Source: a virus. From it: a stretch of 64,000 nucleotides of DNA. The DNA lies in IMG/VR virus record IMGVR_UViG_3300010397_000004, positions 11,023 through 75,022 of that record. The stretch is one strand, 5' to 3'. Within the stretch, counting starts at the first letter, position 1, and the number at the start of each line of letters is the position of its first letter. The position numbers and the translations under genes are program-made. Positions 43,059 to 59,500 of the stretch are shown here, in pieces. Under the pieces are notes generated by a model. That model had not been told where the DNA came from and ran no database searches. It was given only the letters and a program-made list of their open reading frames with translations.

Positions 43059-43258
43059 GCTCGGGCCGGGGTTCCCGCCGGGCCCGGGTGGCGGCCGCGG
43101 TGTGGCGGGCGTACGACCGCCGACCGTTGTGCTGGTTCGTGGACATATTCGAAGGGGCCCGGGTGGCGTTCGAGCGGTGGCCGCTGGTGTGCCTTCTCGT
43201 CGCGCAGCTGGTTGTCCTCGTGGCGCTCGTGGCGGGGTCGCACGGGTGGTGGCTGTGA
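43055..43258 (+). CDS. Small membrane protein
   Basis: C-terminal TM; GTGA coupling at both ends. Confidence 0.55.
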   Translation: MSSGRGSRRARVAAAVWRAYDRRPLCWFVDIFEGARVAFERWPLVCLLVAQLVVLVALVAGSHGWWL

Positions 43259-44244
43259 GGGTGATGCAGTGGCAGGCCACCGCGGGCGGGTCGATGACGT
43301 ACCGGTTGGATTGGCCGGGCCGGGTGTTGACCCGCCTGGGTCACACGGTGCGCCGGTGTGAGCGGGCCATCCATTCGTGGGTGGCGGACTCGGATGTTGT
43401 GGTGGGCCAGTTCGTGGCGAACGAGGCCCCGTCGTTGCGGTGGCAGGAGTGGGCGGCCGAGGGCCGGACCCTGGTGTACGACGTTGACGACGACCTGTCG
43501 TGTGTGGACCCGGAGTCGGTGAAGGCGTACGCGTACTACTCGGATCCGGTGGTGCAGGCCCGGATCGGGGCGAACATGGCCGTGGCGACGAGGGTGACGG
43601 CGGCGACGGACGGGATCGCGGCGTGGGCGGCCCGGTGGGCCCGGGATGTGGTGGTGGTGCCGAACGGGCTGCCCGCGCAGTTGCTGTGCGCCCCGGATCG
43701 GCCGGCCCGGGCCGATGGGCGGGTGGTGGTGGGGTGGGCGGGGTCGATGCAGACGTTGCCCGAGTTGCGGCTGGTGGCCCGGGCGTTGCAGCGTCTGCTC
43801 GAGTCGACACCGGGGGTGGTGGTTCACACCGTGGGGGTGCCGGCCGACGCGGTCGCGTCGACGGGGCTGACCCACCCGGGCGTCCAGGTGACGCCGTGGG
43901 TGGCCGGCACCGACACCTACCTAACGGTGATCGACTTCGATGTGTGGGTGGCGCCGTACCGGGACATCGCGTTCAACCGGGCGAAGGTGCCGACGAAGGC
44001 CCTGGAGGCGATGTTCCTGGGTATCCCGATCGTGGCGTCTCCGGTCGGGCAGTACGCGACGGTGGTGCGGCACGGGGTCACCGGGTTGCTGGTCCGCGCC
44101 GACCACGAGTGGGGCCGCCACATCCGCGGCCTGGTCCTGGATCCGGCCCGCCGGGCGGCGATGGGTGACGCGGCGAGGTCGGCGGCCGCGGCCCATGTGG
44201 TGGAAGGTTTGGGCCCGTTGTGGGAGAAAGCGCTCACCCCCTGA
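43255..44244 (+). CDS. GT-B (GT4-like) glycosyltransferase
   Basis: 'VYDVDDDL', 'VVVPNGL', 'VGWAGS', 'KALEAMFLGIPIVASPV', 'HGVTGLLV'. Confidence 0.88.
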   Translation: MRVMQWQATAGGSMTYRLDWPGRVLTRLGHTVRRCERAIHSWVADSDVVVGQFVANEAPSLRWQEWAAEGRTLVYDVDDDLSCVDPESVKAYAYYSDPVVQARIGANMAVATRVTAATDGIAAWAARWARDVVVVPNGLPAQLLCAPDRPARADGRVVVGWAGSMQTLPELRLVARALQRLLESTPGVVVHTVGVPADAVASTGLTHPGVQVTPWVAGTDTYLTVIDFDVWVAPYRDIAFNRAKVPTKALEAMFLGIPIVASPVGQYATVVRHGVTGLLVRADHEWGRHIRGLVLDPARRAAMGDAARSAAAAHVVEGLGPLWEKALTP

Positions 44245-44277
44245 ACGTGTGTGTCCACATAGGAGAGAGGCATCGGA

Positions 44278-45168
44278 ATGATTGACGGCAAGCGGGTGGT
44301 GGCGTGGACACCGTTCGGGCGGGAACGGTCGGTGAGCATTTTGACCGAGTACCTGCGCCGCGACCACGAACGCGGCATCGTCGACGAGCACTGGTTGTTC
44401 ATGAACACCGACGTGGCCGGGCAGGAGTCCGACATCGCGTACGCGTATGGGTTGGCGGCCCGGCACCCCGGGTGGGTGCGGATCGTGGAACGGCCGCCGG
44501 GGGAGCCGTACCGCACGCCGAAGCAGCGCAACACCGGCCTGGCGTACCGGTACATGACCGACCCTGACACGGTGTACGTGCGCCTGGACGACGACATCAT
44601 CTACGTGCACGAGGACGCGATCGGGCGGCTGGCCAAGGCGAAGCTGGAGATGCGGCCCACGTTGTGCTGCCACGCGATGATGTGGAACAACGCGATCACG
44701 TCGTGGTACCTGCAGCAGGCCGGGGTGATCCCGTTCGAGTTCGACACCGGCGGGTCGGCGCCGCTGCGGATGGAGGTGGGGTCGCCGTTCTGCATGGACC
44801 CGGTCGGGTGGGCGTCGGGTGACTTCGCGGTGGCGATCCACGAACTGCTGCTCGGCTGGCTGGACGCCGGCGAACCGCAGCGGGCGTTCCTGTACCAGGA
44901 CATGCCGTTGCAGCTGGGGCAGCAGTTCTCCGTGTCGGCGTTCGCTTCGCTCGGTGCGGACTACGCGGCGCTGCCGCGGCCGGGTGTGCTGGAGCCGGAC
45001 GAGGAGGAGCACTGGCACACGGTGCACCAGCCGCGGGTGATCGGGGCGCCGAACATCATCGTGGGGAACGCCCTGGTGTCGCACTACACGTTCGGGCCGC
45101 AGCAGCGGGCGGTGTTGGCCACCGACATCCTGGACCGGTACCGGGCCCTGGCCGGGAAGCTCACGTGA
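44278..45168 (+). CDS. GT-A-fold glycosyltransferase-like protein
   Basis: 'WTPFGRER..SIL', 'YVRLDDDIIY' DxD-type motif, 'VSHYTFGPQ'. Confidence 0.7.
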   Translation: MIDGKRVVAWTPFGRERSVSILTEYLRRDHERGIVDEHWLFMNTDVAGQESDIAYAYGLAARHPGWVRIVERPPGEPYRTPKQRNTGLAYRYMTDPDTVYVRLDDDIIYVHEDAIGRLAKAKLEMRPTLCCHAMMWNNAITSWYLQQAGVIPFEFDTGGSAPLRMEVGSPFCMDPVGWASGDFAVAIHELLLGWLDAGEPQRAFLYQDMPLQLGQQFSVSAFASLGADYAALPRPGVLEPDEEEHWHTVHQPRVIGAPNIIVGNALVSHYTFGPQQRAVLATDILDRYRALAGKLT

Positions 45169-45887
45169 GCGGGATGAAGGTCGGGGTGGTCATCCCCGCC
45201 CACAACGCCCAACCGTTCATCGAAACGCTGCTGGCCACGGTGAACGCCCAGACGTACCCGTGCGCTGCGTACATTGTGGACGACGCGTCCACCGACGGGC
45301 TGGCCGCGTTCTTGAAGGCGCGGCCGTCGTGGTGGCGGCGGTTCGAACGGTCCGAGCAGCGGCGCGGCTGGCCGGCCGCGCTGAACTTCGCCGCCAACCT
45401 GGCCATCCTCGACGGCTGCGACGCCCTGTTCTACTGCGCCGCCGATGACTTCCTGCGCCTGGACTGCATCGAACGGTGTGTGCGGGCGCTGGCCCGCCAC
45501 GACTGGGTGGTGCCGTACGCCCAGCAGATCGGCGGCGAGAACGTGGTCCAGGCGTCCCGGGCCGGCGCCACCCTGGCCGACTTCGCCCTGTGGCCCCCGG
45601 TCATCGACCACGCCCTCATCCACACCCACGTGTGGCAGGCCGTGCGCGGGTACGCCACCGACGTCACCGTGCCCGGATCGTGGGGTGCCGCGGAGGACTG
45701 GGACTTCTGGATCCGGGTCCTCAAGGCCGGGTACGGCGACTACGGGGTGATCGAGGAGCCGCTGTACTACCACCGGGTCCACCCCGGTCAGCTGTCCCGC
45801 GGCCGGGCCGCCATCCACCAGCAGACGGTGGAACTGCTCGCCGCGAAGCACCCCGACGTGTTCGCCCCCGACCCTGATGAGGAGTAG
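45165..45887 (+). CDS. GT2 glycosyltransferase
   Basis: 'VVIPAHNA', 'IVDDASTD', 'AADD', 'AEDWDFWIR', 'YYHRVH'. Confidence 0.92.
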   Translation: MSGMKVGVVIPAHNAQPFIETLLATVNAQTYPCAAYIVDDASTDGLAAFLKARPSWWRRFERSEQRRGWPAALNFAANLAILDGCDALFYCAADDFLRLDCIERCVRALARHDWVVPYAQQIGGENVVQASRAGATLADFALWPPVIDHALIHTHVWQAVRGYATDVTVPGSWGAAEDWDFWIRVLKAGYGDYGVIEEPLYYHRVHPGQLSRGRAAIHQQTVELLAAKHPDVFAPDPDEE

Positions 45888-45890
45888 CGC

Positions 45891-46148
45891 ATGCCAGGAC
45901 CACAACGACGCCCCCACCAGCAGCAGCAGCGGGCCGGGGTGCCGGTCGTCATCGACCCGGCCGAGGTGATGCAGAACCTGCACGGCCAGTACGCCGACGT
46001 GGTGGCCAACCTGATGCAGGAGAACGCCGAGCTCACCGCGGCGCTGCGCACCACCGCCCAGGAACGCGACGAGTGGAAGGCCAAGGCCGACGCGGCCCGG
46101 GCCGCCGCCGGCGTGGCCCCGATGGCGTTGCCAGGGGGCGGCGGCTGA
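45891..46148 (+). CDS. Small coiled-coil protein
   Basis: GAGGAG RBS; 'LMQENAELTAAL'. Confidence 0.65.
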   Translation: MPGPQRRPHQQQQRAGVPVVIDPAEVMQNLHGQYADVVANLMQENAELTAALRTTAQERDEWKAKADAARAAAGVAPMALPGGGG

Positions 46149-46162
46149 CCGGCCCGGCCCGC

Positions 46163-46372
46163 GTGCCCGTCGACGAGTACGCCAGCGTCCACGACATCGT
46201 CGCGGGCACGGGCCTGTCCGCCCGGGCGGTCCGGCGGCGGGCCCGGGCGGAGGGTTGGCGCACCCGGCCGCTGCGGACCGGGCGCCGCGGCCGCCCCGAA
46301 CTCGGGTACCTGTTCGCGGATGTGCTCGCGTCGTTCGGCGCGTCGGTTGACCCGGCCGACCCGAAGGGGTAA
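46163..46372 (+). CDS. Small HTH-like DNA-binding protein
   Basis: 'SVHDIVAGTGLSARAVRRRARAEGW'. Confidence 0.5.
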   Translation: MPVDEYASVHDIVAGTGLSARAVRRRARAEGWRTRPLRTGRRGRPELGYLFADVLASFGASVDPADPKG

Positions 46373-46426
46373 ACAAATCACCGTATAGTGGTCCGCACCC
46401 TGCCAAGGGGAGCCATGCGGGCACGC

Positions 46427-46499
46427 CGCGGTGTGGAGCAGCTGGTAGCTCGCTGGGCCCATAACCCAGAGGTCACCGGTTCAAATCCGGTCGCCGCAA
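46427..46499 (+). tRNA. Initiator tRNA-fMet (CAT), CCA not encoded
   Basis: CGCGGTG...CGCCGCA with C1:A72 mismatch; anticodon stem CTGGG/CCCAG; GGTTCAAATCC T-arm. Confidence 0.93.
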
Positions 46500-46577
46500 C
46501 CTACCCGTGAAATCGATACCGGTGTCGAGAGACCGAACCGTTCCCCGTGGCGGTGGGGTCAGGGTCGACACACAACA

Positions 46578-46615
46578 CGAAGCCCCCGCCGGGGCCAAGC
46601 CCGGCGGGGGCTTCG
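46578..46615 (+). terminator. Hairpin terminator after tRNA
   Basis: cgaagcccccgccggg / cccggcgggggcttcg perfect 16-bp stem. Confidence 0.75.
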
Positions 46616-46642
46616 CGCATCCACGGAAGGGAGCCGGCCCGT

Positions 46643-47143
46643 ATGGGACTGCAAGGCAAGGTCACCGACTACGGCGACCTCCTCCACGTTGAGACCTGGA
46701 TCGTCAAGGGCCGTCGCGTGGACTTCGTGGCCCACTACGGCGCCGAGACCGACACCGGCCCCGCCGACCGCGTGCCGGGCACAGGGCCCGCCACACCACC
46801 GCCACGAAAGGCAGAACTGATCATGGACCTGCACGAGGACAAGAAGCGCACCCGCACCGCCAGCGCGGTCGACGAATTCGGTGTCCCGACCACGTTCGAC
46901 GGCACGATGGCGTACACCGTGGACGACCCGACGCTGGTCAACCTCACCGACAACGGTGACGGTTCCTGCGTCATCGCCGCCGTCGGCGGCGGCGCGATCG
47001 GCGTGGCCAACCTGACGTTCACGGCCACCCCGACCGTGGGCGACCCGGTCGTCCGGGTCGAGGCGATCAACGTCATCCCGGGCGCCGTGGAGGGCTTCAG
47101 CTTCGTCGACGGCGCCGAGGAAGAGGTCACCCCGGACGCCTGA
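46643..47143 (+). CDS. Hypothetical protein with beta-rich (Ig-like) C-terminal domain
   Basis: GGGAG RBS; 'YTVDDPTLVNLTDNGDGSCVIAAVG'; alternative start at 46823. Confidence 0.6.
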   Translation: MGLQGKVTDYGDLLHVETWIVKGRRVDFVAHYGAETDTGPADRVPGTGPATPPPRKAELIMDLHEDKKRTRTASAVDEFGVPTTFDGTMAYTVDDPTLVNLTDNGDGSCVIAAVGGGAIGVANLTFTATPTVGDPVVRVEAINVIPGAVEGFSFVDGAEEEVTPDA

Positions 47144-47216
47144 CCGGCGACCGGCAAACGTTTCCCTGGCCGGCGCGGCCCCGCCCACCCTCCCGGGTCG
47201 GGGCCGTGCCCACCGG

Positions 47217-47675
47217 TCACTTCTTCGAGCAGGTCAGCACGATCGGCTGGTTTGACGCCAGCGTGGTGCCCTCGGCCGGCTCGACCTTCCTCACGGTCCA
47301 GTTCTGAGCCAGGACCACGAACGTGTCGTCCGGGTCGGCCGACCCGTAGACCACGTTCGTGAACCCGAGCCGCTCCAGCTGGTCGTGCACGATCAACGCA
47401 TTCCCGCCGACGAGCCCGGTCGGGATCCGCAGCTGCACCGCCGGCGGGGTGGTCGGCGCCGCGAATGTCGGGAACCCGGTGAACGTAGGCCCCGGCGTGA
47501 ACGCCGGCAGGGCGCCGTTGCCGGCCCGCCCTACGTAGGCCGTGAACGCCAGCAGTCCGCACAGCAGCAACACGCACCCGCCCGCGACCAGCCCGATCAG
47601 CACCCCGGGGTGGATTTTCGCCCGAGGTGGGCGGGGCGGCGGGACGGTCGGCCACTGCTGCGGCGCCTGGGTCAT
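47217..47675 (-). CDS. Membrane-anchored PASTA-like domain protein
   Basis: GGAG RBS; Pro-rich N-terminus, 1 TM, 'LVGGNA....QLERLGFTNV...NWTV..VEPAEGT...IVLTCSK'. Confidence 0.75.
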   Translation of the reverse strand: MTQAPQQWPTVPPPRPPRAKIHPGVLIGLVAGGCVLLLCGLLAFTAYVGRAGNGALPAFTPGPTFTGFPTFAAPTTPPAVQLRIPTGLVGGNALIVHDQLERLGFTNVVYGSADPDDTFVVLAQNWTVRKVEPAEGTTLASNQPIVLTCSKK

Positions 47676-47928
47676 ATCGGCTCCATGCGGTAACGAGACG
47701 ACTCCTCGCGGTCGCCTGGCTCGGCCCATCGTGGCCGCCGCGATCGATGGTCACCATCACCCTTTCGGGCCGCGGACCGCCGCCAGAACGGCGACCCGTT
47801 TCCCCACCGTTGTGCCCCGGCCCGCGGGTTCCGCTCCTTGTTGGGGAACGGGAGGCCGCGGGTTCGCGGGCCGGGCGCACGCACGCGCCGTTCCCCGATG
47901 CACCGTTCCCCAACGGAAGAGATCAACT

Positions 47929-49020
47929 ATGCGGGCCCACTCGATCAACTACCTGAGACGGGACGGGCGCCCGAAAGGCCACCTCGTCTCCGTCGGCTTC
48001 TGGGTCTTCAACGCCCCGCGGCCGCTGCTGCTGTGCCGGCTCCTCGGCCACAAGGCAGTCATCGACGGCGTCGGCGACCCCAGCGTCGAGCGCCGGCGGC
48101 GCGGCCTGCTGTCCCGGTGGGTGTGCTGCGACCGGTGCGGAGAACGCCCCGAACCGCAGGGCTATCTCAACCCGTTCGCACCCTGGCACAGGATCGGCCT
48201 GCGCTACAGGGGCCGGTTCAACGGCACCCTGCCCGACCGGGACAAGACCACACGGGCCCACACCGAGCTGGTGGCCGAGCGCCAGTACTCGCCACCGGGG
48301 CCGTGGCCCCGGAAACTGACCGGTGAGCTGGGCGGCCAACTCGTCATCGGCGGGGCAGTTCCTTCCGTCGGATTCGGGGTGAAAGTCGGCCACGGCGGCA
48401 GCGAAGAGACCCTGGCCTGCCACCTGCACCTCGGCAAACTCGGCGCCCTGTACCTGCACACCGAGCGCTTCGGGACCTGGTGGCAGCGCCGCCTCAACCC
48501 GGTCGGCTACCACTCGCGCGTCATCGAGGTCGAGGTCGACACCGAGCGCCTGCGATGGCGGCTCTGGGTCAGGCGCGACGAGTCGTCCGCATCCACTCCG
48601 AAGTGGATGGACGGCAGCGTGCGCATCAACCCGTTCGACCTCACGCTCGGGCCGAAACGGTACGCGTACGAGAACGTCGGCGACCCCGTGACGGCCACAG
48701 TGCGGCTCCCGCACGGCGACGACCACCAGGTCACCCTCCAGCTGCAGCGGGTCCTGTTCGGACGCAAGCGGTGGCGTAAACGACAGTCATGGGCGGCCGA
48801 CTGGGACGCGCGCCCCGGCATCGACACCAAACCCCACGGCGGCGCGATCTGGGGCTCCGGCGTGAAGATCACCGATTCGAGCGGGCGGCGAGACCACGCC
48901 GACCCGTACCACGAACACCAGTGGGTCCTCGAAGCGTGCGCGGCCATCGCGGTGCAGATCACCGGGATGCGGACGCGGTCCGGGTACCACCCGTTCCCCA
49001 CGGAGAGAACAGATGCCTGA
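47929..49020 (+). CDS. Hypothetical Trp/Arg-rich protein
   Basis: 'CRLLGHK...CCDRCG'; stop overlaps the next start. Confidence 0.65.
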   Translation: MRAHSINYLRRDGRPKGHLVSVGFWVFNAPRPLLLCRLLGHKAVIDGVGDPSVERRRRGLLSRWVCCDRCGERPEPQGYLNPFAPWHRIGLRYRGRFNGTLPDRDKTTRAHTELVAERQYSPPGPWPRKLTGELGGQLVIGGAVPSVGFGVKVGHGGSEETLACHLHLGKLGALYLHTERFGTWWQRRLNPVGYHSRVIEVEVDTERLRWRLWVRRDESSASTPKWMDGSVRINPFDLTLGPKRYAYENVGDPVTATVRLPHGDDHQVTLQLQRVLFGRKRWRKRQSWAADWDARPGIDTKPHGGAIWGSGVKITDSSGRRDHADPYHEHQWVLEACAAIAVQITGMRTRSGYHPFPTERTDA

Positions 49021-49210
49021 CCTGAGAACAAGGACCAGCGAGCAGCTGCACGACCGGCTCACCGAGATCGAGACCGAGCTCGGTCATCCGGCGGCCGACG
49101 GCCAGCTGTTCGATGACGTGATGCGCCACCTCGCGGACCTGCTCCGCGAGATCGGGCTCATCCACATCGAGCTCGCCCGCCGCACAGCGACCGGCTGGAG
49201 GCCGATGTGA
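49013..49210 (+). CDS. Small helical protein
   Basis: GGAG RBS; coupled. Confidence 0.6.
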   Translation: MPDLRTRTSEQLHDRLTEIETELGHPAADGQLFDDVMRHLADLLREIGLIHIELARRTATGWRPM

Positions 49211-50235
49211 AGGTCGCAGTCACCGGCGGCGCCGGCTTCATCGGCGGCCACGTCGTCGACGAGCTCCACGCCCGCGGCCACCAGGTTCTCATCGTCGACC
49301 ACCACGGCCGGCGCGGCCACGCCACCGACGACGAGTTCATGCTCGCCGACGTCCGCGACCCTGTCGCCATGGCCGAGGTCGCCGCCCACGTCGACGGCAT
49401 CATCCACCTCGCCGCCTGTCTCGGCACCCAGGAGACCATCCGCAACCCGCGGCCCGCCGCCGAAACCAACATCCAGGGCGGCCTCAACTTCCTGGAAGGG
49501 CTCGCCCAGTACAACATCCCGGGTGTCTACATTGGAGTCGGCAACCACTGGATGAACAACAGCTACTCGATCACGAAGACGACGATCGAGCGGTTCGTTG
49601 CCATGTACAACCAGGAACGCGGTACCCGCTGCAACGTGGTCCGGCTCGTCAACGCATACGGCCCCCGCCAGTCCGTCGCCCCCCCGTTCGGGCCGGCCAA
49701 GGTCAGGAAGATCACACCCGCGTTCGTGTGCCGGGCGCTCACCGGCGCCGACATCGAGGTGTACGGCGACGGCGAGCAGATCTCCGACATGGTCCACGTC
49801 ACCGACGGCGCGAAGGCCCTGGTGTCCGCCCTCGAGCACGCCGCCGGCGGCGACGTGTTCGACCGGGCCGTCGAATGCGGGCCGGTCCAGTCGTGCACCG
49901 TCAACGAGGTCGCGCACCGGGTCATCGAGGCCGCGACCGGGTTCGGGTTCGACCCTGTCGACCTGGTCCATCTGCCCATGCGACCGGGCGAGGTGCCCGG
50001 CGCCCGGGTCACCGCGGACACCTCCACCCTGGCTCTGGTCGGCATGGACCCGGCCAGCCTGGTGCCCCTCGACGCCGGCATCTCCGACACCGTCGGCTGG
50101 TTCATCGAGAACTGGCTCTCCGGCTGGACCGCCGCTCAGCAGAAGGCGACCAGCACCCCGCAGGACCGGTGCGTCCGGGACAGCGGCGACTGCGGATGGT
50201 GCGCCCCGACCTGCCGGCAACTCGCCGCATCATGA
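49207..50235 (+). CDS. NAD-dependent nucleotide-sugar epimerase/dehydratase (extended SDR)
   Basis: 'VTGGAGFIG', 'IHLAA', 'YSITK' (YxxxK), 'NAYGPRQ', 'YGDGEQISDMVHV'. Confidence 0.93.
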   Translation: MKVAVTGGAGFIGGHVVDELHARGHQVLIVDHHGRRGHATDDEFMLADVRDPVAMAEVAAHVDGIIHLAACLGTQETIRNPRPAAETNIQGGLNFLEGLAQYNIPGVYIGVGNHWMNNSYSITKTTIERFVAMYNQERGTRCNVVRLVNAYGPRQSVAPPFGPAKVRKITPAFVCRALTGADIEVYGDGEQISDMVHVTDGAKALVSALEHAAGGDVFDRAVECGPVQSCTVNEVAHRVIEAATGFGFDPVDLVHLPMRPGEVPGARVTADTSTLALVGMDPASLVPLDAGISDTVGWFIENWLSGWTAAQQKATSTPQDRCVRDSGDCGWCAPTCRQLAAS

Positions 50236-50810
50236 CCACCGTCGTCGCCGCCGCCCGGGACGGCCTGGTCGCCATGGCCGCGGACACCATGGTCAACGTC
50301 TACGACCGGCCCGTGCCCGGCGGCGTCTCGAAGATCCTCCGGGTGCCGGCCGGCCGCGGTCAGGTCCTGCTCGGCTGCGCCGGCTTCGCCGGGATCATCG
50401 GCGTGCTCGCCGCCGGTCTACACATCGACGGCGAGCCCGAGGACGACGCGGCCGTCCATCCGTGGGCCCACGCCGTCGCGCACGCCGTGACCGACCTCGC
50501 CGTCGACGCCAAGCTCACCGACGACAGCGGCCGGATGGACGCCCACCTCATCCTCGGATGGCGCGGCCAACTGTGGACCCTCGGCCACATGGTCGCCGTG
50601 CCCGCACGCGACGGCGTCGCCGCGATCGGGTCCGGGGAAGGCCCGGCCATCGGTGCCCTCGACGCGCTGCTCGAGGTGGCCGGCCACGAACCGCTCGCCC
50701 AACTCGTCGCCCGGGCCGCCCGGATCGCAGCCGCCCGCGACCGGTACTCCGGCGGCCCGCTCGACGTCCACCTCCTGCCCGGGCCGGACGATGCTGACGC
50801 TGCCGGCTGA
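50232..50810 (+). CDS. Ntn-hydrolase protease (proteasome-beta/HslV-like)
   Basis: 'MTTVVAA..DG.VAMAADT', 'SKI', 'GCAG', 'AIGSG', 'DRYSGG'. Confidence 0.8.
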   Translation: MTTVVAAARDGLVAMAADTMVNVYDRPVPGGVSKILRVPAGRGQVLLGCAGFAGIIGVLAAGLHIDGEPEDDAAVHPWAHAVAHAVTDLAVDAKLTDDSGRMDAHLILGWRGQLWTLGHMVAVPARDGVAAIGSGEGPAIGALDALLEVAGHEPLAQLVARAARIAAARDRYSGGPLDVHLLPGPDDADAAG

Positions 50811-51231
50811 GGCATACGCCGCGGTCCTCGACCACTGCAGCCGGGCCCTACCCGACGAGGCGTGCGGCATCATCGCCGGCCCGGCCGGCCAGCCCCACGC
50901 CGACGTCTCCGCCACCCGGGTCGTCCCGCTGGCCAACGTGGCCGACCGACCCGGCAGCCGGTTCGAGTTCGACCCGACCCAGCAATTGGCCGCCTACGAC
51001 CAGATGGACGCCCTCCGCGAGGACCCGGTCGTCCTCTACCACTCCCACCCGGCCGGGCCGCCCGTACCATCCCCGACCGACGTGGCGGCCGCCGCCGGCG
51101 GAACCTGCCTCTGGCTCATCGTGGCCATGGCCGGCCCCGCCCCGAAAGCCCGGGTGTGGGCCATCGACGGCGACCAGGTCACCGAGCACGTGCTGCAGAT
51201 CGTGGACGGCCCCAGTGGACCCCCGGCCTGA
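50791..51231 (+). CDS. JAB/MPN+ (M67) metallo-isopeptidase
   Basis: 'LPDEACGIIAG' and JAMM motif 'YHSHP....PSPTD'. Confidence 0.9.
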   Translation: MLTLPAEAYAAVLDHCSRALPDEACGIIAGPAGQPHADVSATRVVPLANVADRPGSRFEFDPTQQLAAYDQMDALREDPVVLYHSHPAGPPVPSPTDVAAAAGGTCLWLIVAMAGPAPKARVWAIDGDQVTEHVLQIVDGPSGPPA

Positions 51232-52879
51232 CAGCTACGACCGGTGGGCCGCCTCGGAAGAGCCGGCCGCGTGGGACGACAACCCGTACGCCGACGACGT
51301 CGTATTCCCCGAACCGCCCACGTGGGCGCCCACCGCGGTGGACGCCGAAACGTTCGACCCGCAGGCGTACCTCGACCAGTTCGACCGGGTCCGGCTCGGC
51401 TCCGACCCCACCTACCGGCGGGCCGCCACCCGCCGCGACCCGCTTCTATTCGCCCTGGTCTACCTCGACCGGCACCTCCGCTCCGACGCCACCGCCGGCC
51501 AGGTCACCATGGCCGACCCGCACCTCGACTGGTGCCGGCGCGCCCTGGCCTGGCTCACGCCCGTCGTCGAGCCGCGCAGCCAACGACACGCCGAGATCGC
51601 CCCCCGCGAGACCGGCAAGAGCAGTTGGTGGTTCCTGGCCCTGCCCCTGTGGGCGGCCGCGCACGGACACGTGCGGTTCGTGGTCGCGTTCGCCGACTCG
51701 ACCGGGCAGGCCGAGACGCACCTGATGACGTTCAAGCGCGAGTTCGAGGTCAACCACCTCCTGCGCGAGGACTACCCCGACCTGTGCGCCCCGGCGCGCC
51801 GCCAGTCCGGCACCACGGTCGCCGACCGCCAAGGCATGATCCACCAGCGCAACGGGTTCTCCTTCGCGGCCAGGGGCATCGACAGCGCCAACCTTGGCCT
51901 GAAGGTGTCCGAACGGCGCCCGGACGTGATCCTGTTCGACGACGTCGAACCCGACGAGTCCTCGTACAGCGAGCTCCTGGCAGGGAAGCGGCTCCGCACC
52001 ATCATCGACGCGGTTCTCCCGATGAACCTCCTCGCCCGGGTCGTCCTCATCGGCACCGTCACCATGCCCGGGTCGATCGTGCACCAGCTGGTCCGGGCCG
52101 CCGCCGGCGACGACACCGAGGACTGGGTTGCCGAGGAACGGTTCGTCGCCCACCACGCACTCCCGATCGTCGTCCGCGACGACGGATCCGAGCGCAGCAT
52201 CTGGCCCGCGAAGTGGCCGATGGAGATGCTCAACGAGATCCGGCACACACGCTCTTATCGAAAGAACTTCGCCAACGACCCCATCGGCTCCAACGGCGGG
52301 TACTGGACTCTCGACGACTTCGTGTACGGCCAACTCGACGGAGTCGTCGCGGAGATCCTGTCCATCGACCCAGCCGTCACCACGAAGAAGACCTCCGACT
52401 TCACCGGCCTCGCCATCGTCGGCTTCCAACCATCCACAGTGGAAACCGACAGCCGCACCGGTCGCCGGGCGCAACGCCCATCGCGGTGCGTGGTCGAGGA
52501 GGCATGGGAGGTTCGCCTCACCGGCGACCCGCTACGCACCCACGTGCTGAAGCTGCTCGCCAGGCACCCACGCGTGCGCGCAGTACTGGTCGAAACCAAC
52601 CAGGGCGGCGAGAACTGGCACGCCATCCTTCACGACCTGCCCGTGAAACTGCTCACCGTGCACCAGACCGTGAAGAAGGAAGTCCGGGCCGCGAACTGCC
52701 TCAACTTCTACCAGCGGGGCCGGGTGCTCCACGCCAAGAAGCTCGCCCGCCTCGAGGAACAACAGACCGCGTTCCCGAAGGCCCCGCACGACGACATGGT
52801 CGACGCGGTGACCGCGCCGATCCTGCGCCTGCTCGCACCCGGCAAGCCGGGCAAGACCCAGACCGTGTTCCCACGATGA
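51215..52879 (+). CDS. Terminase large subunit
   Basis: Walker A 'APRETGKS', Walker B 'ILFDDVE', nuclease 'SIDPA...SDFTG', 'VETNQGG', 'HDDMVDA'. Confidence 0.93.
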   Translation: MDPRPDSYDRWAASEEPAAWDDNPYADDVVFPEPPTWAPTAVDAETFDPQAYLDQFDRVRLGSDPTYRRAATRRDPLLFALVYLDRHLRSDATAGQVTMADPHLDWCRRALAWLTPVVEPRSQRHAEIAPRETGKSSWWFLALPLWAAAHGHVRFVVAFADSTGQAETHLMTFKREFEVNHLLREDYPDLCAPARRQSGTTVADRQGMIHQRNGFSFAARGIDSANLGLKVSERRPDVILFDDVEPDESSYSELLAGKRLRTIIDAVLPMNLLARVVLIGTVTMPGSIVHQLVRAAAGDDTEDWVAEERFVAHHALPIVVRDDGSERSIWPAKWPMEMLNEIRHTRSYRKNFANDPIGSNGGYWTLDDFVYGQLDGVVAEILSIDPAVTTKKTSDFTGLAIVGFQPSTVETDSRTGRRAQRPSRCVVEEAWEVRLTGDPLRTHVLKLLARHPRVRAVLVETNQGGENWHAILHDLPVKLLTVHQTVKKEVRAANCLNFYQRGRVLHAKKLARLEEQQTAFPKAPHDDMVDAVTAPILRLLAPGKPGKTQTVFPR

Positions 52880-52900
52880 CCAGGTAGGGGGGCCATCCAC

Positions 52901-54634
52901 GTGCCAGCCCCCGCCGACCTGATCACCGCGTACGAGGAGCTCGTCGAGTACCGCCCGGCGTACGAAGAGGCCAAGGACATGTACGCCGGCCAGGTCGGCG
53001 AAACGTACGCGTCCGAGCGGGTCAAACGTCTCCTCGCCCGGGCGCGCGCCGACGACATCGAAGAGTTCAACTACGCGCACATCCCGGTCGACACCATCGC
53101 CAATCGGCTCGAGATCACGTCGGTGACCGTGGTCAGACCGGACGCGGACGACCAGACGACGGAAGGGGGCACCGGTGGGGTACGGGCCGACAGTCAGAAC
53201 ACCAAGACCCCGGATGCCGAGAAAGGTGCGCGCGTCGGTGAGGGTGCGGCTCCCAAGGCTGCGGATGCCGAGCACTACTCGCAGGCGCAGGCGGCGCTAG
53301 ACAAGCTCCGCGAGGACAACCAGCTCGACGCCGAATCCGCCGGCCTACACCACAAGGTGTCCCGCGACGGCGACTGCTACCTCATCGTCTGGCCGGCCAG
53401 CGACGACAAGGGCAAAGTCACCGCCGTCGATATGCGCGTCAACGACGCCCTCACCACCCGAGTCATCTACGACGTCGAGGACCCGCTCAAGGTCGCGTAT
53501 GCGATCAAGTCCTGGACCTACGACGAGGTCGACGCGGGCGGCAACAAGATCCAGCGCACCCGTGCCACCCTCTACTACGACAACCGGGTCGAGCGGTGGA
53601 TCAGCAAGCCCGACAAGAAGGCACAGGCCCTGTGCGACCCGGACGCCTGGCTCCCGTACGAACCCGTCGGCAAGGACGGCAAACGCGAACCCGCGGTGAA
53701 GGAACACGACTACGGCCGGGTGCCCGTCTTCCACTTCCGGAACGACCGGCCGTACGGCCAACCCGAGCACCGGTACGCGTACGGCCCGCAGCAGATGCTC
53801 AACAAGCTGGTCATGGCCCAGGCGGTCGCGGTCGACTTCCAGTCGTTCCCGCAGCGATACCTGCTCATGGACCCGTCCGCCGACCAGACCATGGCCAACT
53901 TCCTCGACCCCAACCACCCCGAGGACGACGACGACCCCGAGGGCGACGCCAACGCGTCCAACCTGTCGGCCGACCCGTCGTCGGTGTGGAAGCTGTTCGG
54001 CGCGAAGTCGACCGGCCAGTACGACCCGGCCTCACCCGACACCTTCCTCAAGCCGTTCGACCGCTACGTCCAAGCAATGGCCGAACTCACCGAGACCCCG
54101 CTCTACCGGTTCGGATCGGCATTCGCGCAGACCCCCAGCGGAGCCGCACAGCGTGCAGCCGACACCCCGACCGTCAACAAGGTCGAGAACCGGCAAAGCT
54201 CCTACGACGCCACCTGGGAAGACGCGTACCAGTTCGCGTTGAAGCTGCTCGGCTTCGACGTCACCGTCTCCGTGGCGTGGAAGCCCGCCGAGCAGGCGAC
54301 CGACTTCGAAGCGTGGTCCGTGGTCGGGGCCAAGGTCGACGCCGGGGTACCGCGTCGGCAGGCCCTCATCGAGACCGGGTACACGCCCGACCAGGTCGAC
54401 GAGTGGCTCGGCGGCGAGGCCGCGATGTCCGCGCTGCTACAGAAGAAGGTCGACCTGATCACCGGTGTCGCCAACGCGCTGCAATCGCTCGGAGCTGCAG
54501 TCGCCATGGGCGTCATCCACGAGGATCAGGTCGGTGCACTGGTGTCCTCATTGGTCGGTGAGGTACAGCAGAGCCAAGCCCAGGACACAGCGCCCGACAG
54601 CGGGCAGACCCAGGCCGCCGAGACAGGCACCTGA
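52901..54634 (+). CDS. Portal protein (SPP1-like)
   Basis: Follows TerL; 'GDCYLIVW', 'HDYGRVPVFHFRN', 'FPQRY', 'PSGAA'. Confidence 0.9.
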   Translation: MPAPADLITAYEELVEYRPAYEEAKDMYAGQVGETYASERVKRLLARARADDIEEFNYAHIPVDTIANRLEITSVTVVRPDADDQTTEGGTGGVRADSQNTKTPDAEKGARVGEGAAPKAADAEHYSQAQAALDKLREDNQLDAESAGLHHKVSRDGDCYLIVWPASDDKGKVTAVDMRVNDALTTRVIYDVEDPLKVAYAIKSWTYDEVDAGGNKIQRTRATLYYDNRVERWISKPDKKAQALCDPDAWLPYEPVGKDGKREPAVKEHDYGRVPVFHFRNDRPYGQPEHRYAYGPQQMLNKLVMAQAVAVDFQSFPQRYLLMDPSADQTMANFLDPNHPEDDDDPEGDANASNLSADPSSVWKLFGAKSTGQYDPASPDTFLKPFDRYVQAMAELTETPLYRFGSAFAQTPSGAAQRAADTPTVNKVENRQSSYDATWEDAYQFALKLLGFDVTVSVAWKPAEQATDFEAWSVVGAKVDAGVPRRQALIETGYTPDQVDEWLGGEAAMSALLQKKVDLITGVANALQSLGAAVAMGVIHEDQVGALVSSLVGEVQQSQAQDTAPDSGQTQAAETGT

Positions 54635-56482: not shown

Positions 56483-56546
56483 CTCTCCGCACTGCACCTC
56501 CAGCACCACCCACCTGATCGCACATCACGGGCAGGGGGTGGAGTCG

Positions 56547-59500
56547 GTGGTCACCAGGAAACCATTCAAAGGCTCGCTGCATCCCCGCGGTGCGCACACC
56601 GGCAAGTTCGTCGAGAAGCTCGACGTACCAGCGTGGTTGAGCACCGTCAGCGGCCAGCTGCTCGACCTCGCAAGCGGCGGGACCGACCACAAGCAGGCGC
56701 AGGACCAGCGTGTGCACGCGGCCACCCGGGCAACCATGCAGGGCCACTCGCTGGAGACCGCCCGCCAACTGGCCCGGCCCGGCCGGACCGGAAAGGTCGA
56801 TCGGACCAAGCTGCGGGCCCAGGTCCGCGGCCTCGACGACGACAAGCTCGCCCAGCTCCGCACCGAACTGGGCAGCAAGGGCCACCCCGACGCTGTCAGC
56901 GTCGTCGACGCCGAGCTCGCCCGCCGAGCAGGCGCCACCGCGAAGGCACCCAAGGCGAAGCCGTCCCTGGCCGAACGCATCGACCAGGACGGGTACGCCA
57001 AGCAGATCCGCGCCATGAGCGACGACAAGCTCGCCGACGAGTTCGTTCGGATCTCCCGCCAACCCAGCCTCACAGCCCACGACGAAGCCGCGATCATCGC
57101 CATCGCCGACGAGATGGGCCGCCGGGACAACGCCCGGCACGCCGACACGATCAGCACTGAGCAGGCCCACCAGGACGCCCGGATCGACGCCCTCGTCGCG
57201 CGCGGGTACTCGTACCGGGACGCCTACGCCGAGGTGCACGGCCTCGACTCCGACGTGCTGGACCGGCAGGAGCGGGCGTCCCTTGTGGACGCCCAGCGAG
57301 CCAAGGGCGAAACCCGCGAGCAGGCCCTGCGCCGTCTCTACGCCGAGCACGTGCACCTCCAGTACCTGGCCGCCGAGCAGGCGTCGAACGGGCACCTGCT
57401 CACCCCGGCCGCGCGCGCGCAGGGCATCGCCGCCCTGTCGCTGTTCTCCGGCCCCAGCGCGCGGGCGAACAAGCATGCGTCGGATGAGCTGAAGGAGTTC
57501 TGGCGAACCCACCCGCGGGTCACGTACGCGGAGTTCAAGTCCGCGACGTTGGCCCGGCCGGCGGATGCGAAGGCGGCCGAGCGTGCCCGGCAGGCTGCTC
57601 GGACCGCCGAGGTGGCCCAGCCCGGCGACCGTGGTCAGAAACGCGGCCCGCGCAAGAAGCCCACCAGCCGCGGATCGCTCAGCGCCCCCGAGCGCCAGTT
57701 CCTGGTCGGGCTGTCGAAGGAGCACAGCGGGATCGCGTTCTCAGACGAGGACGGGTACCGCGACAAGGCCACCCGCGACCGCCTGGCAGAGCTGGGCTAC
57801 GTGCGGGTCGAGCCGGCCGGTGGCCGGCGGAAGGCCATCCACATCACCACGCACGGGCGCACCGCCGCGGCCGAACTCGACTCGAAAGCCATGGCCTCCG
57901 GGCCAGCGCCGGCGCAGGGGGTCTCCAGCAGCCAGCCGCCGATGGCGCGTGAACTCGCGCAACGGTCGATGACCGACCTTAGCCGCCTGGCCAGGATGTT
58001 CCATGTCTCGAGCAATGCCAAGGATCCCGAGGGTCTGGCCAGGGATATTCGAGCGAGCCGCCTTCGGGCCTGGCGCGTGCCGGGCGAGGACTCCGCCGCC
58101 GACATGGAGAAGGCCGCAGCTGGCGCCGACCATGAACTAAGGCGCGGGTTGGCCGAGATCGACGCGGCCAAGCCGGCGAAGCGGGTGCCGGCAAAGAAGG
58201 CCACCAGGAAGGCCGCCGCCCCTGACGTCGGCGACGTGGCCATCTGGGAGCCGCACGACGAGCCAGCAGTTCGTGGTGTGGTCGGCCGTGACGGACGCGG
58301 CTTGTACGTGGAGTGGCCCAACGGGACCGGCGGAAGCCCTCGCCGCGAGCGAATGACGGCGGTCAAGAAGGACGACCGGGTCCGGTTCGAGTCCCCCGAC
58401 GGCTCGCCGCTGGGCGGTTCGAAGCCACCGGCGAAGAAGGCCGCCAAGGCCGCACCGAGCGCCCCGGTGAAGCGCCTCACCGCCGCCGACCGGGCGCAGG
58501 CCGCCCGGGTGGCCAGTGCGTTCCACCAGGACTGGCAGAAGACCCAGCCCCTGTTGGGCGACGGCACCCGCAAGCCGAAATTCAAGACGACCACCGACCG
58601 GGCCTGGATCCAGGCACACGGCACCGACCAGGTGGACATCGCCAACACCTCATACGCCGACCTGCCCGACGACTGGCAGCAAGAGAACCGCGACGCCGCT
58701 GAGGTCGTGCAGCGAATCCTCAAGGAGCGCGGCGGCACCGTCGACCTGTCCGACGAGAAGACCCGCCTCGAGGTCGGCGACCAGATCCACAACGCTTGGC
58801 TCAGCCGACACGGCACCGAGGACTGGGTCAAGGAATCCGGCCTCGATGTCCCGTTCGCGGAACTGCCCCGGTCGGAGCAGGACAAGGACCTCGACCAGCT
58901 GAAGGTCGCCATGGCCGCCCTGGCGCCGGCCAAGAAGGCTACCCCGCGCAAGGCGGCCGGAGCTCCGCCGACGACCCGTGGCATCACATCCAAGGTCGAA
59001 GCCCGCAGGTCCGGGTTGATCGGGGTCGCCCGCAGTTCGGCTGTGGGCGGCAACAACCCGGCCGCCGAGGAAGTGGCCCGGATGCAGGGCTTCGATGCCA
59101 AGCCCAAGGTCGGCGACGCCAAGGCCGTGGACGCCGTGATCGCGGCCGGTGGTATCGAACTGTGGCGCGGCGGTGACCCGGCCAGCATCGACGCGATGCG
59201 CAGCGGGAACCTGCACTACGGCGGCGGGTTCTTCGGGTCCGGCTACTACTCTTCCGTCGGCCGGGGCGCGGCCGAGGACTTCTCCGGCGCCCGCGGTCAC
59301 AGCGAACCCGGCCACGGCGCTGTGGTTCGGATGGCGTTGCACCCGGACGCCAAAGTGGTCGGGTACGACGACCTCGACGCCCAGTACAAGAGCTTCGAGG
59401 CGAAGGACCCGCAACTGGCGAAGGCCATCGACCGCAACGGGTACGCGGCGATGCTCGGCTACGACGCGGTCCGCGTGCCGGCCAAATACGGGGACGGCAC

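Follow-up and report, generated by a model that had tools for sequence, protein, structure and literature searches.

Adjacent genes for an HslV/BPH-like Ntn protease and a JAB metallopeptidase upstream of terL in a temperate actinophage, and their separate occurrence in related phages

A gene for a proteasome-like Ntn threonine protease (hereafter Ntn) and a gene for a stand-alone JAB metallopeptidase lie next to each other immediately 5' of terL, the gene for the large terminase subunit, in a phage of the temperate Micromonosporaceae type, the hosts of which are high-GC soil bacteria. Their adjacency is best seen as a coincidence, and the explanation towards which we lean is that both are independent, optional late cargo genes of a variable slot 5' of terL, which became neighbours through an accident of insertion. 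The two genes would have landed side by side in that slot in one small lineage of such phages, and their products would act separately, not as successive steps of one pathway. The stretch analysed (the window) comprises 64,000 nucleotides of a 75,022-bp source record, which is a complete temperate actinophage genome.

A chain of overlapping genes leading into terL

The genes upstream of terL (Table 1) overlap one another. The epimerase stop and the Ntn start share an ATGA at positions 50232–50235, the Ntn stop (50808–50810) lies inside the JAB gene (an overlap of 20 nt), and the JAB stop (51229–51231) lies beyond the GTG that starts terL at 51215 (an overlap of 17 nt), which confirms the JAB–TerL overlap described in the original prediction. 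That GTG is the sole start codon 5' of the N-terminal stretch common to TerL relatives. No terminator was found on the + strand between positions 45800 and 53000. Through these overlaps, translation of Ntn and JAB is linked to that of the late (packaging/head) operon and, since the chain runs into terL, both are probably expressed late, as had been proposed. That both are real genes with these boundaries is borne out by their coding-type GC3 (0.92 for Ntn and 0.92 for JAB; 0.93 for the epimerase and 0.91 for TerL), by Pfam and PHROG matches and by the overlaps read in the sequence. GC at codon positions 1/2/3 is 0.83/0.52/0.92 in Ntn and 0.77/0.53/0.92 in JAB. The first ORF of Table 1 has no match in Pfam or PHROG; by eye only, it resembles a 66-aa ORF that lies directly 5' of the JAB gene in a related phage (L027).

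Table 1. Genes of the chain that leads into terL (positions in the window)
Feature	Position	Strand	Length (aa)	Matches and remarks
ORF of unknown function	49013..49210	+	65	GC3 0.89; coupled to epimerase start; context only
NAD-dependent nucleotide-sugar epimerase/dehydratase	49207..50235	+	342	PF01370 8.3e-38; phrog_540 6.3e-52; context only
HslV/BPH-like Ntn threonine protease	50232..50810	+	192	phrog_1040, PF00227, HslV/BPH profile and fold matches
Stand-alone JAB/JAMM zinc metallopeptidase, Mec/desampylase (JAMM1) type	50791..51231	+	146	PF14464
Large terminase subunit TerL	51215..52879	+	554	phrog_38 6.9e-55; GTG start

Identity of the two proteases

The Ntn protein begins with M-T-T and has neither a propeptide nor an extra domain able to target it to the procapsid. 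It matches PHROG 1040 ('peptidase HslV family', E = 1.2e-13) and, barely over the cut-off (22.7 against 22.4), the Pfam family Proteasome (PF00227, E = 8.4e-05), while a profile built from 30 homologues retrieves HslV at 2.5e-10 and BPH at 1.3e-7 from the PDB (solved structures span 2.5e-10 to 1e-7). Residues T2, D18, K34, G133, G135 and D170 are invariant in 30/30 homologues, and G48, S134 and S173 are kept in at least 90% of them; in mature numbering the conserved residues correspond to proteasome Thr1/Asp17/Lys33/Gly47/Ser129/Asp166/Ser169. The AlphaFold model (pLDDT 95.9) has four helices, and its best structural matches in Foldseek are HslV (E = 2e-11) and BPH (5ovs, TM 0.76–0.79). Both the catalytic residues and the alpha-beta-beta-alpha Ntn fold (Foldseek, Pfam) place the protein among the proteasome-like Ntn hydrolases (group I, HslV/BPH-like). 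It falls short of HslV proper (30.4 and 32.6 bits against cut-offs of 157.75 and 137 for TIGR03692 and NF003964, respectively), and the sequence and model comparisons point to a group-I proteasome homologue that is HslV/BPH-like and not an HslV orthologue. The enzyme would lose Met1, after which Thr1 would serve as the nucleophile, and may assemble as an HslV/BPH-like double ring; it would work without HslU, because no gene for HslU or an AAA+ protein was found in the phage genome and no HslU above the family cut-off in five host genomes.

A tblastn search of 50,697 phage records with Ntn returned nothing at E 1e-3. The protein probably belongs among the proteasome homologues that a 2021 survey linked to phages; it reported the bioinformatically defined AAH and PPH in phages and prophages (Fuchs, Alva & Lupas 2021, PMC8665760). 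With HslV, BPH, AAH and PPH it shares a compact single-domain Ntn fold of ~180–200 aa with no propeptide and no AAA+ partner, and the Thr1/Asp17/Lys33/Gly47 catalytic set; carriage by phages or prophages is shared with PPH and AAH. Membership of PPH is disfavoured, as PPH proteins are ~140 aa long and lack helix H2 (PMC8665760) whereas Ntn has 192 aa and four helices; AAH, set against Ntn by description only, would be the likelier home. The survey contains no actinophage with AAH and no informative gene context (PMC8665760), whereas the Ntn family described here is found in the terminase/portal modules of Micromonosporaceae (pro)phages.

The JAB protein matches Prok-JAB (PF14464, E = 3.4e-23, 82.2 bits against a cut-off of 25), its motif E23 ... 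H84-S-H86-x7-S94-x2-D97 is invariant in 14/14 homologues, and 2KKS (5.3e-14) as well as PfJAMM1 are its matches in the PDB. These are also the best matches of its model (pLDDT 90.6; TM 0.85 to 2KKS and 0.79–0.91 to PfJAMM1), and both the zinc site and the MPN fold make it a member of the JAB/JAMM metallopeptidases (PF14464). The catalytic motifs of the two enzymes are thus intact, as originally described, with residues that are invariant or at least 90% kept in homologues. That the JAB is an isopeptidase, as had also been proposed, is supported by the modelled fold, which is like those of Rpn11 and of PfJAMM1 bound to SAMP2 and places it on the isopeptidase-type branch (JAMM1/Rpn11-like fold) and not with the RadC type.

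Mec (the Rv1334-type CysO-cysteine hydrolase), the archaeal desampylase JAMM1 (5LD9/5LDA) and DSY2949 (2KKS), with which it shares the layout of a minimal stand-alone JAB of ~130–150 aa with the full JAMM motif, are its best family, sequence and fold matches. It differs from Mec and the desampylases in being phage-encoded beside terL, in a genome with no sulfur-carrier (ThiS-family), E1 (ThiF) or CysM gene, and it scores under the equivalog cut-off of the NCBIfam desampylase model (NF041370, E = 1.3e-25, 89.8 bits against 130), so that it was not assigned to the Mec/desampylase equivalog. Cap3 (type II CBASS) and BilC (Bil) resemble it in fold and chemistry, but similarity to the PADLOC defence JAB models is very weak (best E = 0.0017, 15.9 bits) and searches of the phage for a ThiF-type E1, a type to which the E1 part of Cap2 would belong, and for a Ubl partner found neither, which argues against a defence JAB of the Cap3/BilC kind. 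The JAB of lambda gpK is likewise phage-encoded, and this tail-tip type goes with the ubiquitin-like protein TAPI (gpI) (Iyer, Burroughs & Aravind 2006, PMC1779556). The present protein, in contrast, is a 146-aa single domain with no NlpC/P60 fusion and no match to the Lambda_tail_I Ubl, and its gene stands before terL in the packaging module and not in a tail-tip module, a difference in position that had been pointed out at the start; its matches to PHROG tail families (1e-11 to 1e-14) are confined to the JAB domain. Small stand-alone JABs are also found among the terminase/portal/MuF genes of other actinobacterial siphoviruses, namely Cluster D mycobacteriophages (such as Troll4, gp11) and Gordonia phage Zany (gp11), where they are annotated as 'metalloprotease' or 'JAB/MPN domain protein'. 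They are 28–31% identical to the present JAB and lie between portal and MuF whereas the latter lies directly 5' of terL; no Ntn homologue was found in these phages by tblastn.

Distribution of the two genes in related phages

The original prediction took the two genes for one coupled module and proposed that their co-occurrence be searched for in phages. This search revealed mixed states, with relatives that carry one gene, the other or neither, and therefore argues for two separate optional genes and not a dedicated pair. Nineteen distinct Ntn loci, near terS, terL or portal, have no JAB nearby, and Prok-JAB is absent from five whole Ntn-bearing viral records (completeness is 90% or more in three); an HMM search of 27 JAB loci found no Ntn. 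In L027, L039 and L046, the nearest JAB–terL relatives, a JAB gene lies directly 5' of terL without Ntn. L027 has a TerL 65% and a portal 59% identical to those of the present phage, and no Ntn gene was found in the whole records of L027 and L039. L046 has the order epimerase–JAB–terL, with an epimerase 80% identical to that of the window which abuts the JAB gene, leaving no Ntn between them. TerL relatives at 43–65% identity comprise L016, L027, L039 and L055–L062; among these, L055–L061 (TerL 54–56% identical) carry neither gene, and their terS–terL slot is empty or holds a 61-aa gene or a 104–119-aa gene. The absences are to be read with the completeness of the records, since several of the relatives are 44–60% complete (L027 58%) and a missing gene there is not proof; neither gene occurs in the records of two more distant TerL relatives, G003 and G004, which are 93% and 100% complete.

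In the JAB tree, the phage proteins group apart in a clade with long branches, and those encoded adjacent to terL make up one clade (support 100/99) in which Ntn-bearing and Ntn-free contigs are interleaved. Both genes are found together only in the window and apparently in at least two further contigs, from Logan (2,287 bp and 15,783 bp), where the pairing is deduced solely from shared longest-contig sizes (2,287 bp for Ntn P0003 and JAB P0097; 15,783 bp for P0013 and P0093). Across the loci and records compared, the pair is not a conserved two-gene system. If these contigs do hold both genes, the pairing persists in one sublineage and could be selected. A predicted Ntn–JAB complex gave an ipSAE of 0.01, which counts neither for nor against binding.

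In relatives, namely Micromonosporaceae (pro)phages, Ntn occurs by itself within the packaging/head module, either 5' of terS, between terS and terL (L016), in the terL–portal interval (L012, L023) or in the portal–MuF interval (L021); its flanks vary from locus to locus and no conserved neighbour gene was found. That it stays in such modules through several rearrangements is consistent with a role in virion assembly, in which Ntn would serve as an accessory protease of non-canonical type for head maturation or cargo processing (acting on the scaffold, the MuF protein or a 3,457-aa head-associated polyvalent protein), with JAB trimming some other component of the head. Neither in this phage nor in L012 did the interval from portal to major capsid protein show a canonical prohead protease, the giant MuF-type polyvalent protein is encoded 3' of the scaffold gene in this phage, and the JAB genes of Cluster D and Zany lie beside MuF, some annotators labelling the product 'capsid maturation protease'. 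We nonetheless consider such a role rather unlikely. L027, a close relative with the same type of head module, lacks Ntn (in a record 58% complete), the more complete G003 and G004 lack both genes, the Ntn protein has no domain for procapsid targeting, and many JAB relatives are found at the end of early or middle operons and not in head modules. To our knowledge, SPP1-type portal–MuF–scaffold–capsid modules normally require no protease. An essential part in head maturation, which the original prediction had named in advance as the result that would tell against an anti-defence function, is itself disfavoured by the patchy distribution in close relatives. Against the reading of independent cargo stands the observation that phages unrelated to one another also have Ntn or JAB in their packaging/head modules (JAB in Cluster D and Zany), which hints at a shared late-stage or virion-related theme.

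Possible substrates and roles

Searches of the 75,022-bp genome for ThiS, ThiF, Prok_Ub and Lambda_tail_I gave no match, and the genome has a single JAB gene. The earlier statement that no Ubl, E1 or E2 gene lies nearby therefore holds for Ubl and E1, the families searched, and does so over the whole genome. With no Ubl or E1 in the phage, the JAB substrate should be host-derived or an unrecognised phage protein. If the two genes are independent cargo, JAB would be a Mec/JAMM1-like zinc hydrolase whose cleavage site follows the C-terminal Gly-Gly of a beta-grasp (ubiquitin-like) protein, and, because the phage has no beta-grasp protein, its substrate would come from the host. An adduct or conjugate of a Ubl of the sulfur-carrier type could be that substrate, and so could a defence Ubl conjugate. 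Small ORFs ending in Gly-Gly were scanned for Ubl or Pup candidates; the scan yielded a single candidate of note, a 69-aa ORF with PGGGG at its C terminus (45939–46148), which was rejected by eye, as it looks helical and not beta-grasp and does not have the terminal Gln/Glu of Pup. Depupylation is performed by Dop, not by JAMM enzymes, and the suggestion that JAB acts on Pup conjugates of the Pup-proteasome tagging system is therefore rejected on chemistry.

Prok-JAB genes are present in 196/201 Micromonosporaceae genomes, 168/201 having exactly one, of housekeeping type, and 28/201 having two to four, so that extra JAB-containing systems exist in the host family. A substrate class for such a JAB would thus always be present, which would suit a metabolic role, with JAB as a captured Mec that boosts late cysteine release or sulfur-carrier processing and Ntn recycling host protein. 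The closest cellular relatives of JAB (~40% identity), 135-aa actinobacterial proteins named M67 metallopeptidase or [CysO sulfur-carrier protein]-S-L-cysteine hydrolase, fit this as well. However, the phage JABs stand in a clade of their own and under the equivalog cut-off, neither cysO nor cysM is found with their genes, and Mec is not known to be a rate-limiting step; we find a metabolic role improbable.

The function originally predicted was anti-defence, with the two enzymes as a coupled late deconjugation module that strips host tags from assembling virion proteins. Such a module would amount to a mini deubiquitinase plus proteasome; the Ubl tags removed, be it from proteins of the virion or of the host, would be Bil-type or Cap2/CBASS-type cGAS conjugates. 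It is compatible with two intact enzymes chained to terL, with an isopeptidase-type fold like those of Rpn11 and SAMP2-bound PfJAMM1, with the lack of Ubl and E1 genes in the phage and with a patchy accessory distribution typical of counter-defence genes, and the 28 genomes with additional Prok-JAB genes show that extra systems occur in the host family. Overexpressed Cap3 abolishes CBASS protection (bioRxiv 10.1101/2022.03.31.486616), an effect that a phage JAB could in principle match. Nevertheless, we hold such a module to be very doubtful: the pair is not conserved, JAB scores far more weakly with the PADLOC defence models (E ~1e-3, 16 bits) than with the desampylase model (1.3e-25), most genomes of the host family (168/201) have the single housekeeping-type JAB only, and none of the 19 distinct loci offers a link between the Ntn family and Ubl systems. 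No report of a phage JAB as counter-defence against Bil or CBASS was found in the literature searched. We give only a slim chance to the version in which the terL-adjacent JAB strips Bil/Bub or Cap2 tags late and Ntn, where present, disposes of the tag or the tagged protein. JAB by itself is a possible candidate for an anti-Ubl-defence enzyme.

Should either enzyme be shown to act on host Ubl conjugates, a deconjugase encoded by a phage would for the first time be known to serve as counter-defence, and Ubl-based immunity in Actinobacteria would be opened to study. Whatever the two enzymes act on, an HslV/BPH-like family resides in actinobacterial phages and prophages, consistently within the terminase/portal module, where the 2021 survey had neither an actinophage carrier nor an informative gene context. 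In this lineage the stretch just 5' of terL, which is the terS–terL interval wherever terS was recognised, is a hot spot for varied small enzymes and, as such, a good hunting ground for accessory functions.

Gene layout of the packaging region

The source record comprises 75,022 bp (the window being its bases 11023–75022), has a G+C content of ~70% and bears a 123-bp direct terminal repeat, with a completeness rating of 100%. Its nearest relatives by protein, prophages found in Micromonospora, Plantactinospora and Actinoplanes, point to a temperate phage of the siphovirus type whose hosts would be Micromonosporaceae-like Actinobacteria. On the plus strand, genes whose codon bias is typical of coding sequence (GC3 0.89–0.93) follow one another without a break from a 65-aa ORF to a giant ORF (see table), and no terminator-like site was found on this strand in 45800–53000. 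The epimerase and Ntn genes are joined by an ATGA, and the Ntn/JAB and JAB/TerL pairs overlap by 20 and 17 nt, respectively. The protein starts (M-T-T for Ntn, M-L-x-L-P for JAB) match those in all homologues; for TerL, the GTG at 51215 is the sole start codon 5' of the N-terminal stretch common to its relatives. The presence of two adjacent protease genes before terL, as originally predicted, was confirmed by GC3, family matches, catalytic residues and structure models.

Features of the packaging region and of the corresponding slot in relatives
Feature	Position	Strand	Remark
65-aa ORF	49013–49210	+	
Nucleotide-sugar epimerase	49207–50235	+	
Ntn protease	50232–50810	+	
JAB	50791–51231	+	
TerL	51215–52879	+	
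Portal	52901–54634	+	
MuF-like protein, then scaffold protein, then giant ORF	downstream of portal	+	
104–119-aa gene between terS and terL	L055:2358–2669; L059:5564–5920		TerL relatives without JAB and Ntn

Three glycosyltransferase-like genes lie shortly before the packaging genes (43102–45884; phrog_7162 at 2.4e-41 and two weaker matches); together with the epimerase, they could have a role in virion or DNA glycosylation. On the minus strand, a listed 170-aa frame (47217–47729) would encode a membrane-anchored, proline-rich protein; its GC is highest at codon position 1 (0.89) and only 0.67 at position 3, and a plus-strand frame in 47200–47500 has a third-position GC of 0.92–0.94.

Families and folds of the two enzymes

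Both genes are of known families. The Ntn protein matches the PHROG 'peptidase HslV family' (1.2e-13) and, barely above cut-off, Pfam Proteasome; a profile of 30 sequences found HslV (2.5e-10), BPH (1.3e-7) and also proteasome beta subunits among solved structures. Among the 30 homologues, conservation extends over T2, D18, K34 and D170, over G48 and S173 (in at least 90%) and over the GSG at 133–135, in which both glycines are invariant and S134 is present in at least 90%; in mature numbering, these residues make up the complete proteasome catalytic set. The structure model, a very confident one (pLDDT 95.9), matches HslV and BPH, the latter best by TM-score. An HslV orthologue was rejected (30 bits versus a cut-off of 158), and HslU is absent from the phage genome, with none above the family cut-off in five host genomes. 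Searching 1.84 billion representative proteins with the profile gave 62 clusters at ≤1e-30 and 483 at ≤1e-10, almost all of them single-domain proteins of 180–200 aa beginning at the Thr. Compact group-I homologues (AAH, CPH and PPH) were catalogued by Fuchs, Alva and Lupas in 2021 (PMC8665760), who already recorded PPH and AAH in phages and found neither an Actinobacteria-specific phage with AAH nor a gene context suggesting function. Ntn is probably an AAH-type member. One homologue (47% identity; L024:8001–8543) lies in non-phage surroundings of an Actinomycetales MAG, flanked by genes for a dehydrogenase-like protein and for a regulator-like one of 1,038 aa; the family therefore includes cellular members too.

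JAB matches Pfam Prok-JAB (3.4e-23), and its top NCBIfam model is 'desampylase' (1.3e-25, under the equivalog cut-off). The nearest solved sequences are 2KKS and PfJAMM1. Because its model (pLDDT 90.6) superposes on 2KKS (TM 0.85), PfJAMM1 (including the SAMP2 complex), BRCC36 and Rpn11, the protein is classed as isopeptidase-type, and a RadC-type JAB was rejected. Its closest cellular relatives are actinobacterial proteins of 135 aa (~40% identity) named M67 peptidase or CysO-cysteine hydrolase. Stand-alone JAB genes have already been annotated in actinophage head modules (Troll4 gp11 and Zany gp11).

Distribution of the Ntn and JAB genes among relatives

The original prediction had read the two genes as a coupled late deconjugation module directed against host defence. 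That reading is supported only in part: the enzymes and their late coupling through gene overlaps hold, but neither the pairing nor the link to defence does. No JAB gene was found near Ntn in the 19 distinct Ntn loci (21 fetched from viral and genome collections), nor any Prok-JAB anywhere in five whole Ntn-bearing viral records; conversely, the Ntn HMM gave no match in 27 JAB loci. As for defence, JAB matches the PADLOC models of defence-system JABs at E about 1e-3 only.

JAB is followed by terL, portal, MuF and scaffold in L027 (where TerL and portal share 65% and 59% identity, respectively, with those of the window) and L039, and a 1.7-kb contig (L046) has the order epimerase-JAB-terL, with an 80% identical epimerase whose stop abuts the JAB start, which is the arrangement of the window without the Ntn gene. 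In high-GC phages, many further JAB relatives are found where early or middle operons end. In the JAB tree, terL-adjacent JABs form a single well-supported clade (100/99), within which Ntn-positive contigs (the window, P0093 and P0097, the last two credited with both genes only from the equal sizes of their Ntn-match and JAB-match contigs) interleave with Ntn-negative ones (L027 and L046). TerL relatives at 54–56% identity have neither gene; their terS-terL gap is empty or holds a 61-aa ORF or a 104–119-aa gene, the last showing that the slot accepts varied cargo. JAB-terL adjacency is thus the older feature, at the level of the lineage; the Ntn gene, a cassette of its own, has repeatedly been inserted or lost, and the slot upstream of terL gathers varied cargo.

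In all but one or two of the surveyed loci, the Ntn gene lies near terminase or portal in a late operon, commonly in the order HNH-Ntn-small genes-terS-terL-portal-MuF, with variants between terS and terL (L016), terL and portal (L012 and L023) or portal and MuF (L021). No other gene is consistently adjacent to it. In L021:5625–13023, whose contig bears the label of a Burkholderiaceae MAG, it stands between portal-like and MuF-like genes; this slot is the usual place of head-maturation proteases. A ~363-aa protein without Pfam or PHROG match (window 47929–49020, inside ORF 47542–49020) recurs at 42–49% identity in three Ntn-carrying loci (L007:5813–6910, L019:9375–10412 and L017:11429–11860), at differing distances from the Ntn gene.

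Possible roles

For Ntn, persistent location in packaging/head modules is the only contextual signal. The modules follow the SPP1 pattern (portal, MuF, scaffold, capsid), and no canonical prohead protease was seen in them; Ntn may have a part as accessory maturation or cargo-processing protease. A 3,457-aa protein encoded nearby also speaks for it: a single frame immediately 3' of the scaffold gene (window 56538–64000, on to genome coordinate 3034; L026) that runs out of the window across the record ends, the circular genome having been cut within it. Its N-terminal part resembles MuF/head-morphogenesis proteins, and further parts are similar to ADP-ribosyltransferases and one to Nudix proteins (PHROG matches); the whole has the appearance of a polyvalent protein associated with the head. 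However, L027 has the same head-module type without Ntn (in a record 58% complete), and TerL relatives at a greater distance also lack the gene, in records that are nearly complete.

For JAB, three candidate functions fit: (i) counter-defence deconjugation, (ii) an auxiliary function in sulfur-carrier or cysteine metabolism and (iii) processing of a virion component. The phage genome gave no match to ThiS-like or Prok_Ub Ubl, Lambda_tail_I, ThiF-type E1 or a second JAB; any Ubl substrate would therefore come from the host or be an unrecognised one. Prok-JAB occurs in 196 of 201 Micromonosporaceae genomes (exactly one in 168, two to four in 28; counts only for the four unpublished genomes included, G080, G121, G153 and G213), and thus the host family always offers a substrate class of the Mec type; about one in seven of these genomes has additional JAB-containing systems. 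No phage JAB acting in counter-defence was found in the literature searched. The only notable small Gly-Gly-tailed ORF in the genome (69 aa, 45939–46148) is apparently helical and ends P-G-G-G-G; it is not obviously beta-grasp and, lacking a terminal Gln/Glu, not Pup-like.

With moderate confidence, we regard the pair as two independent accessory late enzymes: JAB would be a Gly-Gly-specific Ubl-tail hydrolase whose target is a host beta-grasp protein, and Ntn a ring protease working without HslU. What is new is the presence of this proteasome-homologue family in phages and prophages of Actinobacteria, its consistent terminase/portal context and, in one sublineage, the occurrence of the Ntn and JAB enzymes side by side.
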